64,000 nt of DNA from a plasmid, in sequence record NZ_CP135254.1, one strand, 5' to 3'. Made by a program: the position numbers. Below are positions 3,001-9,000 of the stretch, piece after piece (the first letter of the stretch is position 1; each line of letters begins with the position of its first letter).

Positions 3001-6000
3001 TCGCTGGCCAGATTGTACACGTCACTACGTTCACGCTTTCCGACAGCCACAACAGCAATAATCAGTTGATCATCTATTACCTGATAGACCAGACGAAAGC
3101 CTGACGCGCGAAGTTTAATTTTATAGCAGTCCTTTATCCCTCTCAGCTTTGCTGAGGGGATATGTGGTTCGTCACAGCACTTCTTCAGCTTCTTCGCAAA
3201 CTGTTGCTGAATGGCCTTATCCAGCTTTTGCCATTCCTTCAGCGCATCTTCCCTGAATTTGACCGTATAAGTCATAGATATGTGTCCAGATCCACGTCAA
3301 GCAGTCGCTGGTTACTGCGTTCTGAAACCAGCTTTGCCAGTTCCTGATCATCCAGGGCATCGAGCATCTTCTCGTAAAGCTCTGCCGGGATGCAGTAAAA
3401 AGCGGGCTGATTACGGTTCAGAATAGCGACCGGGAAGCCGTCGCCGGCACTGACCGTCGCCATCGGGTTTTTTTTAAGTTCGCTGATGCTCGCGCTTGTG
3501 TCACTCAGAATAATGTTGGGCATAGTGCACCTTTAAGACTTGTTAACAGGTCTCAAATATAGCCCTCACATGACCAGTTAACAAGTCTTTTAAACGGTAG
3601 GTGTGCAAAATATCCGGAGGGCGAGGGTACTGGTGCTCGTACCCATCCTGGTAGCCATGCAAGCCAGACCCGGGCTGAGCCACTCCGGGTTAAAACCTGG
3701 CGACCGGTAACTCTTTCCAGCGGGTTGTATATGCCGGTGACAACATATCCCTCTTCATCTGCCACTCAGGAGCAATACCTCTGCCGGCAAACCAGATTTT
3801 CCCAAGCCCTGAGTGATTAATGCCATCGAGGACTTTCATCAGAGCATCACTGTGCGGCCGCGGCTGTATCTCATCGAACAGGTTCAGCTGAGAGACCCCG
3901 TTGGGACAGAAATCGTTCAGCATGACTCCCGCTTTTGCGTAGCGGTGACCAGGTACCCAGATCCTGTCCAGTGCGTTAACTGCAGCGGCGATAATATCCC
4001 GGGAGTCTCGCGTTGGCGTACTCAGTTTTTCCGTCGAGATATTCCCGTAGTACGGCTCTTTGACGGCGAATGGCGAAGTTTTGATGAAGGCTGAGATATG
4101 CCGGCAGTACTGTCGTTCACCACGCAGCTTTTCTGCTGCCCGCTCAGCATACTGACATATGGCCTGGCGGAGCTCATCATAGGTGGTGATCCGCTGCCCG
4201 AAGCTGCGACTGCAGACGATCTGCTGTTTGGGCGGCGGTGCTTCCTCCAGCGAAATACAGCTCTCTCCGTTCAGCTCCCGGACAGTTCGCTCGAGCACAA
4301 CGTTAAAGTTCTTCCGGATAAACGTCGGGTTAGTCAGCGACAGCTGCAGGGCTGTTGTGATCCCCATCGCCTTCAGTTTCTTCGCTATCCGGTTTCCCAC
4401 CCCCCAGATCTCCTCCACCGGCTGCAGGCTGAGTAATTTTGCTGTCCTGCCAGGATTATCCGGCGACAGCGCCAGCACTCCCCGGAACTGTGGCCATTCT
4501 TTCGATGCCCACTGTGCCGATTTCGCCAGTGTCTTTGTGGCGCCGAAACCGACACCGATTGTGAGCCCCGTACCACTCAGGACGTGCCCGCGCAGCTGCC
4601 TGCCAAATTCTTCCAGATCCATACAGTGGCCAATGCCCCGGGCATCGAGGAAACACTCATCAATAGAATACTGCTCAACACGGGGAGATAACTCTTCAAG
4701 CAGGGCAACCACGCGGTTACTTAGACTCGCATAAAGCTCATAATTACTTGAAAATACGAACAGTTTTTCCGGGAATTGTACGTCTTTCAGCTGGAACCAC
4801 GGCGTACCCATTTTTATGCCCAATCGCCGTTTGGCCTCTGGGCTTCTGGCGATCACGCAGCCGTCGTTATTACTCAGGCAAATGACGGGTTTTCCTCTTA
4901 AATCCGGGCGAAATACTTTCTCGCAGCTGGCATAGAATGAGTTGACATCGGCCAGAGCGAACATCAGTCCGTGCCCCGTGTTTTGTGAATAAACGCGGTG
5001 ACCACGCCAAAAATCTGGAGCGTCTCCGGGTCCGGATACAGGACAGGGTAAGCCGGATTCATCGCCTGCAGGGCAGGGCGGGGGGTCAGCAGAAGGCGTT
5101 TAACCGTGAACTCCCCCTCAATCTCGGCAATGACGATATCGCCATGCCGGGGTTTTTCCGCTTTATCAACGACCATCAGGTCACCGGAGTAAAGACCGAT
5201 ATCCGTCATGGAGTTTCCGATGGCCCGGACAAAATAGGTCGAATGGCGCCGGCGAATGCAGTATTCGTTGAGGTCCAGCTCCGATTCGGTGTAGTCCGCG
5301 GCCGGAGAGGGGAAACCGGCCGCACACCGTTCAGTGAAAAGCGGCAGGGTGAGTGTTCCGGGGTTGAGTGCTGCAGGTGTGAATTCCACCGTTTCGCTCC
5401 TTATTGTCGCGGTAGGGATACCCGTTACCGGATACCCCCCGCACAGATCCCGGCGTGCGCGATTTACGCACCGGGCTCCTGCCTCGGGTGTCTGGCGGTG
5501 AACCGCTCCACAGGCCATGGATGAAGAACCCGAACCCTTGGTAGCCATGCGGCTGCCAGTTTGTTTGCTTTCGTCCAGGTCGTATCATCCTTCTGGCTCC
5601 TGCGCCTGAGCGCCCGGCGCCAGAGGTTTGTTACGTGTGTCCTGAACTTCTGCATGGTGGGGAAGTTGCCCGGTACCGAGTGATAGTTCAGGTATCCCTG
5701 AACCACTCTCCTGAGCCATTTTCCCTGTTCGGGGATTGAGTAATGCCAGCGCCTTCGCAGACCGTCTTTGATGGCTTTCAGAGTTGCCGTCATCCGATCC
5801 CGGCGGGTCTTTCGTATCAGCATGAACCTGCCGTTGCGATCTTTCCCGCTGATGTGCGTGAACCCGAGGAAGTTGAACGTTTCTGGTTTGCCTTTTCCCC
5901 TGATGGCACGGTTTTCGGCAGCGAAGCGGCCGAACTCCATCAGACGGGTTTTCTCCGGGTGAACCGTGAGTCCGAACTCCCTCAGTCTGCGCTGCATGGC

Positions 6001-9000
6001 TATACGGAAGCGCCGGGCATCGTATCGTTTGTCGAACCCGATGACGATGTCATCGGCGTATCTGACCATTACCACATTGCCTGTGGCATAGCGACGTCGC
6101 CACTGATGCGCCCACAGATCGAAGACGTAGTGGAGGTATATGTTTGCCAGCAGCGGTGAGATGACCGCACCCTGTGGGGTGCCTTCCTCCGTTGCTCGCC
6201 ATTGACCCTCCTCCGACGTCCCGGCTGTGAGCCACTTACGTATGAGCCTGATTACCCTCCGGTCGCCGATCCGATGCTCTGTGAACCTGATCAGCCATTC
6301 GTGGCTCACCCTGTCGAAGAACTGACTGATGTCGGCATCCAGTACCCAGTTTACGTTAGTGCGTACCAGCCCTGTGGCCAGTGCGTCCAGTGCATCGTGC
6401 TGGCTTCGCCCGGGTCTGAACCCGTATGAGAACCCCATAAAGTCGTTTTCATAGACTGCGTTCAGGATTTTCACCAGCGCATACTGGACGATCTTGTCCT
6501 CCAGCGAGGCGATGCCGAGCGGGCGTTGTTTTCCATCCGCTTTTGGGATGTAGTGACGCCTGCCGGGCTGCGCCCTGTAGCTGCCCTGATGTAGCCTCCG
6601 GTGCAGATCTGTTATGTTGTTCTTCATGTTTCCGGCGTAGTCCATCCACCTGATGCCATCCACTCCGGCGGCCGCTTTCCTGCTCAGGGAGAGGAATGCG
6701 GCTTCCAGTGCTTCGACTGTCAGCAGGTGGAACAATGCTGTAAACCGTTCTTTCTTCCGCTGCTTCGCAGCTTCCCGCACGCGTGACAGCCTCTGTGACA
6801 TGCTTTCCCGGCTCTGTGTCCGGCGCATGTGTGGCTGTTCCGCGTTCCCCTTGGCCCCGCTCCTTCGCTCCACTGACTCCGCTCCTTTCGGGTTGTTCGC
6901 CTGCTTCGCCGCTACTATGAGCGAGTCCGACTTCTCCTCTCCGTACATCACCGGCTATGACTCCTCGTCTTCCCGGTGCGGGCCATCTCCGACGCTGGCA
7001 GATGGTCAGAGGGGAGATCTCCCGGTTCCCGCGTAGAGATCGTATTGACATGCCAGGGTCTCAGACCCCGCCGGGTCCATGTGGCACTCGCAGTATCGCA
7101 CCCTATGATGTTGCCTTCCGTTAACAGTACAACGTCGGCACCCGGTAATTTAATATACATTTCGTGGCTCAATGGCTGGCCTGTCAACACCCCTGTCAAC
7201 GCTTCGCCCCATACCTCGCGGTATGCAACGCATGACTCGGGGACCTTGTGGATTGCTGGTCCTTCAATGGTCGGGGACTTTCACCCCTTGATCTCTACCG
7301 GTCTCCCGGCGCACACTGTATTTATATACAGTAATTATTTTATCTGCAGCGCTTTTTTGCAAGCCTCTTTCACATCGAAATCGCTAAGGCTCTGCTGCCA
7401 GAGCGAAAACAGGCCGTGGTTGCAGAAAGAGAGTCCCGGGCCCCTTTGACCCGGATATGCTGTAATATACTGATATCATCTGGTTTTCATCCCTTCAGGA
7501 GATACTCATGTCACCAGGCTTCAGAAATGTGCTCCGGTTCGCCGGCGTGCCCGTGGACAGCGCTGAACCTGTCCGCAGAAAATATGGCAGTCGCATGATT
7601 GGGATTGTGACGCTCTGCCTGCTCCCGCTCCTGGTGTTCGACGTCCCGCAGTGGGTTTTCATTTTATCGCAGATTATCTGGGGGGCGGGCGTATATATCG
7701 GCCTGTCCGTGGCCGGGGATAACTCCCGGAATCGCTGATGCTTTGTTTTTGATTGTACAAAAAAAGAACAGGTTTGGTGACACCTGTCTTCCCGTGCCTC
7801 TCAGGCTTCTGCCTTCAGGTTATCCACAGCCTTAAGCCCTGCGTTTGTGGACAGGTATTCTGATGATCCTTCCTTCGCCCGCTGCCAGTGTTCCGCGTCC
7901 GGCTGTTCACGGGACGGGCGGCTTTTCCGCTCCGGCCCGGCGCCGCTGGTATTTTGCGCCAGTCCCTCGCCATTCTAAGGATCGGCCTTCAAGCCGCTTT
8001 CGCGGCATAGCCTCGCCGTCGAAACGACTGACGGCTGCGGTATTCCACGGTCGGCATTGACCCGTTACCGGCCGCGGCGTACAGGCAGCGTGCGGCAGGG
8101 AAGGGTATCGCGGTGATATCTCCTGCACACACTGACCACAGAGGAGTCGGCGGGATACCGCCCGAAAAGCGAATGGAAAAACGTATGACCGTAAAAGCTT
8201 TCATCACACGCCTGTCAGCCTTCCCTGAAGAGACACTCTGCTGCGGGACATTCTGGCTGGCTGATGACTTTCTGGCGCTCGACAGCACCCTCACTGAAGA
8301 CGATATTGATGCTGCAATGGAGTGGGCACAGGACAGCCATGATGCGAATGACGGATTTAACTGGAGCCACCTGCAGGCGGCAATCGATGAGGTGAAGCGC
8401 GTATGAATACCTGGCTTGCAGGGTTAAGTGTCGAACTCGAAGGCACAGAAATGATAGTACATCACCTGATTACAGCGACAGACCTGGAACAGGCAGAATC
8501 CGCCATCATGGAAATGGGGCGCACCTGGTGGCCAGCGCTGAAGCGGGAGGATGACCGGCACCGATGGGAATATCCGCAGGGTGTGGTCTGGTTCAACAGC
8601 ATCATCCTGCTTGAGGACGTGGAAAACAGTATTTTGCGCGGCCTCAAATTCCTCGACGCATGGACAGTAACCGGTATGCCTGATGCTCCTTTACTGTGTG
8701 ATGAGTGGGGCAATGACTGGCGGGATATCACTCGCTGACCTGTTCCTGACCGGGCACCTGGCCCGGTTTTTCGCTTTCTCATGCCATCGCCTTTTCAGGC
8801 TCCGCTTTTATCCGCGACCGCCATGCGGCGTGGGGGATGAACCTGCCACCCGCTGCCAGTGTCTCGCGTCCGGTCTGATACGGGACGGGCGGTTTTTCCG
8901 CTCCGGCCCGGCGCCGCTGGTATTTTGCGCCAGCCCCTCGCCACGTTAAGGAACGCCCTTCAAGCCGCTTTCGCGGCATATCCTTGCCGCCATAAAAACT

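Follow-up and report, generated by a model that had tools for sequence, protein, structure and literature searches.

In a stretch of 64,000 nucleotides from the plasmid record NZ_CP135254.1 (the whole of which is called the window in the following), a group II intron of the type Kl.pn.I5/Se.ma.I1 is located on the minus strand at 5406..7314, in direct contact with the LexA (SOS) box of a umuDC-like operon. It is very probable that the Kl.pn.I5/Se.ma.I1 lineage retrohomes specifically into LexA operators, and that this preference explains the position of the intron in the window. The box, TACTGTATATAAATACAGT (7315..7333), which was recognized by motif match and is uninterrupted in intron-less alleles, constitutes the 5' exon and homing site of the intron; its core CTGT-N8-ACAG at 7331-7316, a palindrome with an AT-rich spacer as is typical for LexA operators, is the only such motif in the 64 kb. 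The intron opens with GTGCGCCGGGAG (GTGCGCC) at 7314, i.e., with zero bases between box and intron, and ends with CCCUACCGCGAC (CCGCGAC) at 5406, followed by AATAAGGAGCGAAACGGTG. All features described below are on the minus strand.

The boundaries of the intron were determined by comparison with empty sites. A synthetic query of 600 nt, in which 250 nt upstream of 7314 were joined to 350 nt downstream of 5406, was matched end to end in 14 plasmids, in 11 of them at 100%, and the intron-less alleles read ..TACTGTATATAAATACAGT^AATAAGGAGCG.. (ATACAGT^AATAAGG at the join). Since the flanks are joined exactly in the empty alleles, the insertion amounts to 1909 nt and occurred without target duplication, as is generally expected for retrohoming. 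Compared with the intron-less allele, the element shows the boundaries 5' GUGYG and 3' AY (here GUGCG and CGAC). An earlier note on this DNA, made from the sequence alone, had placed the insertion between the LexA box and the ribosome-binding site (RBS), and the 14 intron-less plasmids place it there too. Within the plasmid database PLSDB the occupied allele of this locus was found in one plasmid, NZ_CP102106.1, and the empty allele in 14. The element in the window is thus an intact mobile group II intron with exact boundaries.

For a survey of insertion sites, 5' junctions were gathered from plasmids, Escherichia coli genomes, species-representative genomes, metagenomes and viral contigs. The metagenome scan was keyed on the hairpin which carries exon-binding site 1 (EBS1) and was therefore blind to the flank; two sites truncated by insertion sequences (IS) were set aside before counting. 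Forty-three of the 46 distinct 24-nt 5' junctions had the form CTG(T/G)-N8-(A/C)CAG, with the intron directly after the right half-site; two of the other three had a GTGT left half and one (L187) was degenerate. In evenly spread samples, all 36 E. coli matches which included the intron 5' end reached at least 13 nt into a LexA-box-like flank, and 56 of 57 plasmid matches reached at least 14 nt into the flank. Position counts for 31 junctions showed A at -18 in 27, C at -17 in 29, T at -16 in 30 and G at -15 in all 31; TAT at -12 to -10 was found in 31, position -9 was A or G only, position -7 was A in 29, and ACAGT at -5 to -1 was virtually without variation. On the 3' side, A at +1 (26/28) and T at +2 (23/28) predominated.

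The occupied operators belong to various genes. In pKPHS1 the intron followed ATACTGTATATAAATACAGT upstream of a tyrosine recombinase gene, in E. coli chromosomes it was found after the operators of sbmC and of the chromosomal umuDC, in plasmid p2 of Klebsiella pneumoniae JM45 between the LexA box of the cloacin promoter and the ccl gene, in a prophage-like region in front of a small gene, and in pKP444-2 antisense to a umuD-like gene. Further SOS or SOS-type genes at the junctions included GyrI-like genes, tyrosine recombinases and UmuD-like genes; integrase and prophage genes occurred there as well. Among the SOS boxes of E. coli K-12, only the operators of umuDC and sbmC (both TACTGTATATAAAAACAGTA) are known to fit the full consensus, and these are the two chromosomal operators which were seen occupied. 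Sense copies, with the order operator, intron, RBS, were present in the window, at E. coli umuDC, and at sbmC/GyrI-like, cloacin, recombinase and several small prophage genes; antisense copies were located between the -10 hexamer and the operator in three different families of plasmid umuD-like genes. The operator junction thus recurs in both orientations, since a palindromic operator offers a near-equivalent site on each strand.

Some of the junctions deviated in detail. In three viral contigs (L211, L222, L232) the junction read ..ACAGC instead of ..ACAGT with an unchanged EBS1 loop (GTACTGTT); a mismatch at -1 is therefore tolerated. Four near-identical copies with mutated 5' splice sites, three with GTTCGCC or GTTCACC (L015, L148, L164) and one with ATGCGCC (L089), were still located at LexA boxes; copies in which GUGCG was changed to GUUCG or AUGCG are presumably splicing-defective and immobilized. 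In L090 and L184 the left half of the LexA box had been lost to a later IS insertion (..GGGAAGACCCATATA..; in L090 ISKox3 adjoins), which indicates that secondary rearrangements happen at occupied junctions. Copies with 100% identity were also present on very short contigs (L007, L008, L012, L013, L014, L024, L025, L010) from assemblies labelled Streptomyces, Actinomadura, Microbacterium, Kitasatospora, Pedobacter, Flammeovirga, Arthrobacter and Eggerthellaceae; because their flanks looked enterobacterial (LexA boxes, cloacin, sbmC-like genes), contamination of the assemblies is likely.

The target specificity can be related to the ribozyme. EBS1 (ACUGUU, 7123..7128), which was assigned by covariation in relatives, comprises positions 3-8 of the 8-nt loop GUACUGUU and matches, at five of six positions, intron-binding site 1 (IBS1), UACAGU (-6 to -1; 7315..7320), a segment identical with the right half-site of the box. 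In relatives with different exons, loop positions 3-8 of the hairpin GACGnn(loop)nnCGGAAGG were complementary to exon positions -6 to -1, for example in the loop:exon pairs GUUUCC:GGAGAC, UUAUUC:GAGUAA, CUGUUG:CAACAG, UGUCAC:GUGACA, CUGACC:GGUCAG and UCCGGU:ACCGGA. With 15 distinct loops, 87 of 90 positions were paired, compared to a mean of 46 after permutation, and none of 10000 permutations reached the observed value. By this covariation the EBS1-IBS1 interaction may be taken as demonstrated, and EBS1 of the window intron pairs with (A/U)ACAGU. For EBS2, an internal loop of domain I offers the candidate GUAUAUU (7152..7158), proposed from positional homology with the relative L029, whose AGAUGUC pairs at seven of seven positions with its own exon GACAUCU. 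The proposed IBS2 core, AUAUA (-13 to -9; 7323..7327), which is complementary to EBS2 and is assigned tentatively, lies in the operator spacer; this assignment fits the junctions because TAT is invariant and position -9 is only A or G, both of which are able to pair with U.

A sister lineage, consisting of L026-L028 and metagenome relatives, with 68-69% identity of the intron-encoded protein (IEP) and about 75% identity of the ribozyme, was also found at LexA boxes (L027, L028, L093, L102, L125, L127). Its loop GUUACUGU yields an EBS1 UACUGU, shifted by one base, and its insertions occur after ...ACAGTA or ...CCAGTA, one base further. Full LexA boxes occupied by this lineage were TACTGGATATATTCACAGTA, GCTGTATATTTATCCAGTA, GCTGTATAAAACAACAGTA, ACTGTATATATTAACAGTA and TACTGGATGGATGAACAGTG; one site was the operator before an IntI-type integrase gene (PF13495). 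In a neighbour-joining tree of IEP sequences the sister lineage, an 80% variant (L178) and Kl.pn.I5 formed one clade, beside L029, which does not use LexA boxes. Homing into LexA boxes is thus a trait common to a clade and older than Kl.pn.I5. More distant relatives with 55-64% IEP identity, from Alphaproteobacteria, Solirubrobacterales and soil metagenomes, had other conserved 5' exons, such as ..TTACGGTGAC(A/G), ..GAGTA(A/G) and ..GACCGGA, and therefore LexA-box homing is not a property of the whole family. Two groups of these relatives were represented by many copies: 40 soil-metagenome loci (L091-L170) with the EBS1 loop GTTCCGGT, about 60% IEP identity and perfect EBS1 pairing were always situated after a conserved site of about 27 nt, ..ATGTC(C/T)G-N13-GACCGGA, and a single alphaproteobacterial metagenome-assembled genome contained at least eight copies (L037-L043, L067, L077) with 63% IEP identity, always after ..(A/T)TTACGGTGAC(A/G).

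The left half-site of the box, with its nearly invariant CTG at -17 to -15, lies beyond the EBS footprint. Its conservation is probably due to recognition by the IEP, by analogy with LtrA, EcI5 and RmInt1, where the IEP contacts distal 5' exon positions directly. The main rival to such recognition is selection after insertion: RNA pairing alone would select ...TAT(A/G)N(A/G)(A/T)ACAGT(A/G), and the left half-site would be kept since costly copies outside LexA-repressed leaders were lost. This would be in line with an EBS footprint ending at about -14, with the sister-lineage sites that carry the right half-site only, with the degenerate Kl.pn.I5 site L187, and with the argument that selection limits the proliferation of group II introns (PMC3522654). 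It appears unlikely, however, since complete boxes are also found at antisense copies, for which LexA repression brings no advantage and by which the adjacent umuD-like gene is probably silenced. Besides, the EBS motif contains, at a rough estimate, about 20 bits, which should allow several non-operator sites per 5-Mb genome, whereas 43 of 46 observed junctions were full boxes; and an invariant G at -15 is typical of direct IEP recognition, as is known from Ll.LtrB, EcI5 and RmInt1. A search for sites with the EBS motif only, in about 1.08 Mb, yielded 11 unoccupied ones, most of which were mutated copies or the opposite strand of boxes already occupied; this number is too small to show how often such sites lack a left half-site. 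An additional RNA-DNA pairing for the left half-site, through ACAG in GUUGACAGGCC (about 7215-7205), was considered and rejected, since it is specific for Kl.pn.I5 and absent in the sister lineage, which still uses LexA boxes.

Recognition of the palindromic operator as a stem-loop in single-stranded DNA, with insertion at its 3' base in the manner of class C introns, is quite improbable. The palindromic target, the IEP without endonuclease and the compact ribozyme would suit such a mechanism, and class C introns do insert after terminator or attC hairpins (PMC3522654; PMC3001079). It was rejected as the main mechanism, because the stem would hide IBS1, several of the boxes used (e.g., ACTGGTTATACATACAGT) form a stem of at most 4 bp, and EBS2-type pairing with the spacer, which class C introns lack, fits the substitution pattern with only A or G at -9. 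Even less credible is a one-off insertion in the umuDC leader, with a coincidental or locally selected position at the operator edge and with umuDC made dependent on splicing. The single occupied plasmid beside 14 empty ones does indicate that the insertion at this locus is recent and rare; but LexA boxes are abutted at about 45 other junctions, next to unrelated genes and in unrelated replicons, the differing flanking genes exclude copies of one ancestral locus, and there is complementarity between the operator and both EBS sequences. The earlier note had offered target specificity or strong selection as reasons for the tight junction, and target specificity has gained strong support from the many gene contexts; the antisense copies at umuD-like genes likewise point to a preference for a DNA target and not to selection for a spliceable arrangement. 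Its statement that expression of UmuD and UmuC depends on splicing went too far: the intron is located upstream of the Shine-Dalgarno sequence and does not interrupt the reading frame, so that ribosomes can initiate on unspliced RNA, and splicing would affect length, stability and polarity of the leader, not its coding capacity. Finally, the LexA box could belong to the mobile element, i.e., the intron could carry its own SOS promoter/operator at the 5' end, as the copies with a box directly 5' of GUGCG might suggest. The probability of this is practically nil, since intron-less alleles keep the complete box, the spacers vary from site to site, known SOS genes such as E. coli umuDC, sbmC and cloacin have these boxes as their native operators, and the canonical intron 5' end GUGCG follows the box.

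Several points weigh against specific homing into LexA operators, or against parts of the mechanism proposed below. Homologous loci recur among the junction 24-mers, and some of these therefore do not stand for separate events. Pairing of EBS2 with the spacer is probable rather than proven, as it concerns AT-rich sequence, depends on homology with a single relative, and amounts to 5/7 positions here. Homologous sites of the sister lineage (L140, L166, L176, L192, L207) carry the right half-site only, and thus the left half-site is not an absolute requirement in that lineage. Antisense copies cannot profit from an SOS promoter, and coupling to the SOS response can therefore not be the full rationale. 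Splicing, retrohoming and SOS induction of the window intron, as well as LexA binding at the occupied junction, are predicted; the indirect signs of splicing and retrohoming are nearly identical copies at numerous sites whose empty counterparts match, and the new insertions reported from an outbreak (PMC8269217). Finally, the Rfam model for domains V and VI, RF00029, gave no match even at E<=1; support for both domains comes from the family consensus fold.

The core of domains I-IV (7056..7281) gave a full-length match to the Rfam model RF02005 (group-II-D1D4-6) with 186.6 bits and E 1e-54, the gathering score being 49. Domain V (5446..5478), with an AGC triad and a 2-nt bulge, and domain VI (5409..5442), with a GUAA loop, were obtained from a consensus fold of the last 90 nt of 17 relatives; 12 of the 28 pairs in this fold showed compensatory changes. 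In domain VI the branch-point A of the bulged UA is nucleotide 5413 and precedes the 3' splice site by 7 nt, as had been read from the sequence before; the group II fold proposed in the earlier note was therefore borne out by RF02005 for domains I-IV and by the consensus fold for domains V and VI, whereas RF00029 did not lend support. In nearly all of the 17 aligned relatives an A, instead of a U, stands opposite the G of the catalytic AGC triad. The IEP, a reverse transcriptase (RT)/maturase of 495 aa (5464..6951) encoded in domain IV, was identified by Pfam RVT_1 and by TIGR04416, to which residues 81-451 matched with 376 bits (cut-off 300). Its closest relatives with solved structures in the PDB were group II RTs, namely GsI-IIC RT, T.el4h maturase and LtrA. 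Matches to Pfam and TIGR04416 profiles revealed no endonuclease (En) domain. The frame of the IEP enters domain V, with the stop codon (5464-5466) in the terminal loop of this domain; an in-frame stop was present at this place in 17 of 17 relatives.

On the minus strand of the window, the order is promoter, LexA box, intron, AATAAGGAGCGAAACGGTG with Shine-Dalgarno sequence and GTG, umuD and umuC; the promoter, the box, the abutting intron and the translation start had all been noticed before and were confirmed at their positions. The sigma-70-type promoter is of the umuDC type, with the -35 hexamer TTGCAA (7357..7362; 9/12 match) and the -10 hexamer AATAAT (7334..7339), as found by promoter scan and sequence reading, separated by 17 nt; it is the sole promoter-like site on this strand within 5300-7520. 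The -10 hexamer directly abuts the LexA box upstream of umuDC, and an operator that overlaps or closely follows the promoter is characteristic of a damage-inducible gene. Binding of LexA and repression at this box would be predicted from its sequence and from the known regulation of umuDC, sbmC and colicin genes. The Shine-Dalgarno sequence GGAG of umuD (5397..5400) begins 6 nt and ends 9 nt into the 3' exon. The umuD-like gene (4964..5389; GTG start at 5389, 141 aa) matched Peptidase_S24 with E 7e-25 and is annotated as umuD in NZ_CP102106.1; the umuC-like gene of a Y-family polymerase (3690..4964, 424 aa; IMS, IMS_C and DUF4113) overlaps the stop of umuD, as in operons of the umuDC/mucAB type. 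The region is 100% identical to the Klebsiella michiganensis plasmid p3, NZ_CP102106.1 (IncFIA/FII), where ltrA, umuD and a Y-family polymerase are annotated at this locus.

The following mechanism is proposed. The intron RNA would read the right half-site through EBS1 (ACUGUU) and the AUAU(A/G) spacer through EBS2 (GUAUAUU), and reverse splicing would take place directly after ...ACAGT. The left half-site (A)CTG would also be needed, outside of the RNA pairing, and would presumably be recognized by the IEP. Reverse splicing probably occurs into DNA at replication forks, with priming by the host and without an En domain. The insertion keeps 19 of 20 operator positions (the last base is changed from A to G), and the core remains whole on the 5' side; the promoter, and with it the intron and the RT, is therefore expected to be repressed by LexA. 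In a sense copy the umuDC transcript, repressed by LexA, would begin with the intron as its first element, and it's a reasonable inference from the order of promoter, operator and intron that the intron transcript in the window is under LexA control. Intron RNA and RT would then be made mainly during the SOS response, when LexA is cleaved and other operators are unoccupied, i.e., production of the ribonucleoprotein (RNP) from sense copies would be gated by SOS. Transcription should start about 6-8 nt past AATAAT, near 7328-7326, and the 5' exon would consequently have a length of about 12-14 nt, with barely enough room for IBS2 and IBS1. Splicing would restore the native umuDC leader, and unspliced RNA is probably translatable too; effects on umuDC, whose output may be altered by the intron, could arise from the length or stability of the transcript, from polarity, or because the adjacent domain VI occludes the Shine-Dalgarno sequence. 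In antisense copies, umuD-like genes would be parted from their promoters by 1.9 kb and silenced.

All this might be combined into a wider picture, for which the chances are perhaps slightly below even: an endonuclease-less clade specialized in homing into LexA operators, with SOS-gated mobility, as a widespread modifier of SOS-regulated genes. The clade would comprise Kl.pn.I5 with its 80-92% variants in Enterobacterales, and the sister lineage (68% IEP identity) in metagenome bins of Betaproteobacteria type. If this is true, the binding site of a transcription factor would serve as a universal, multi-copy and horizontally mobile landing pad; the RNP would be made when DNA damage or the entry of conjugative DNA frees the operators of LexA, and stalled forks would supply the primers. 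The element would be repressed together with the SOS regulon and derepressed while its target sites are vacated. Antisense copies would uncouple plasmid mutagenesis operons of the umuDC type from their promoters, and in clinical Klebsiella the intron would have been overlooked as a factor that modifies SOS-regulated genes for mutagenesis, colicins, integrases and prophages; since about 6% of the sequenced plasmids carry it, its role would be widespread. It resides in the control regions of error-prone polymerases (plasmid and chromosomal umuDC), of the gyrase inhibitor gene sbmC, and of bacteriocin, integrase and prophage genes, and the genes at occupied operators have a bearing on mutagenesis, persistence and gene transfer during antibiotic stress. 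Group II introns are known to home to specific genes, to insertion sequences, and to terminators or attC sites; a repressor operator as homing site would be a new strategy. The simple and partly programmable reading of a palindromic operator may also be of interest for targetron engineers.

The intron itself is already known, annotated and active. Over 1909 nt the window copy was 99.9% identical to the copy in plasmid p2 of K. pneumoniae JM45 (CP006658), and no structural difference to Kl.pn.I5/Se.ma.I1 was apparent; the identity was established through this p2 copy. The element (also S.ma.I1) is an entry in the Zimmerly database of bacterial group II introns, with its reference copy on pK245. 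The JM45 p2 copy was named Se.ma.I1 = Kl.pn.I5 (PMC6764390), and Kl.pn.I5 copies were tabulated at 1910 nt (PMC3522654), with which the 1909 nt of the window copy agree. The intron was classed as group IIB (PMC5517477); 11 copies were reported for a single K. pneumoniae genome (PMC6965571), and two new insertions occurred during a hospital outbreak (PMC8269217). In PLSDB it was found in 4312 of 72556 plasmids, mostly from Klebsiella, and about 3500 plasmid records carry it with more than 99% identity; among 5426 complete E. coli genomes it was present in 219, including 45 chromosomal places. A strict homing consensus for Kl.pn.I5, from -25 to +10, was derived from three copies (PMC3522654); the sites were called 'intergenic' and no free site was present in one genome. 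In this study, the one which analysed Kl.pn.I5 homing sites, the words LexA and SOS do not occur, and in open-access full texts, those that name the intron among them, no statement was found which ties any group II intron to LexA boxes, although an earlier description elsewhere is possible. What is new would thus appear to be the target specificity for LexA boxes, which is apparently undescribed, in an element that is known.

With respect to known systems, the endonuclease-less group IIB intron RmInt1 of Sinorhizobium meliloti is similar in its RT and maturase, its short C-terminus without En domain, and its EBS1/EBS2 pairing. RmInt1 reverse splices into DNA at replication forks, where cDNA synthesis is primed by the host, and its IEP contacts distal exon positions; a mechanism of this type would be the default expectation for the window intron as well. 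RmInt1 differs in homing to the insertion sequence ISRm2011-2, not to a regulatory operator. Ll.LtrB and EcI5 share the division of recognition between RNA pairing (IBS1/IBS2/IBS3 or delta') and contacts of the protein with the distal 5' exon, which may serve as a model for CTG at -17 to -15; unlike the window intron, they possess an En domain and have unique gene sequences as targets. Class C introns (IIC, IIC-attC) are likewise endonuclease-less, with a recurrent target in non-coding DNA and many copies per genome and on mobile elements, which provides a 'safe harbour' and a route of spread. Their targets, however, are terminator or attC hairpins downstream of genes, which are read as structure with IBS1/IBS3 only, whereas the operators occupied by the window intron and its relatives are upstream of genes and would be read largely by sequence, with EBS2-type pairing in agreement, and sense copies come under a host SOS promoter. 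SOS-controlled mobile elements are kept silent by LexA until DNA is damaged, and in this respect integron integrases, integrative and conjugative elements of the SXT type, lambdoid and CTX prophages, and colicin plasmids are comparable. They possess LexA boxes of their own, in contrast to the window intron, which would gain LexA control by inserting into the boxes of others, including those of integrase, colicin and prophage genes. The SOS control of integron integrases has been reviewed (PMC8876359).

Outside of the intron locus, Rfam searches detected a CopA-like RNA (63826-63913), an antisense-to-traG RNA (46700-46785) and FinP (26605-26681), all on the minus strand, which indicates that the window is part of an IncF-type conjugative plasmid, in agreement with the IncFIA/IncFII typing of NZ_CP102106.1. 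In the latter record a Phd/YefM-RelE/ParE toxin-antitoxin pair follows the polymerase gene; the window contains open reading frames of 83 and 95 aa at this place (about 2988-3523).

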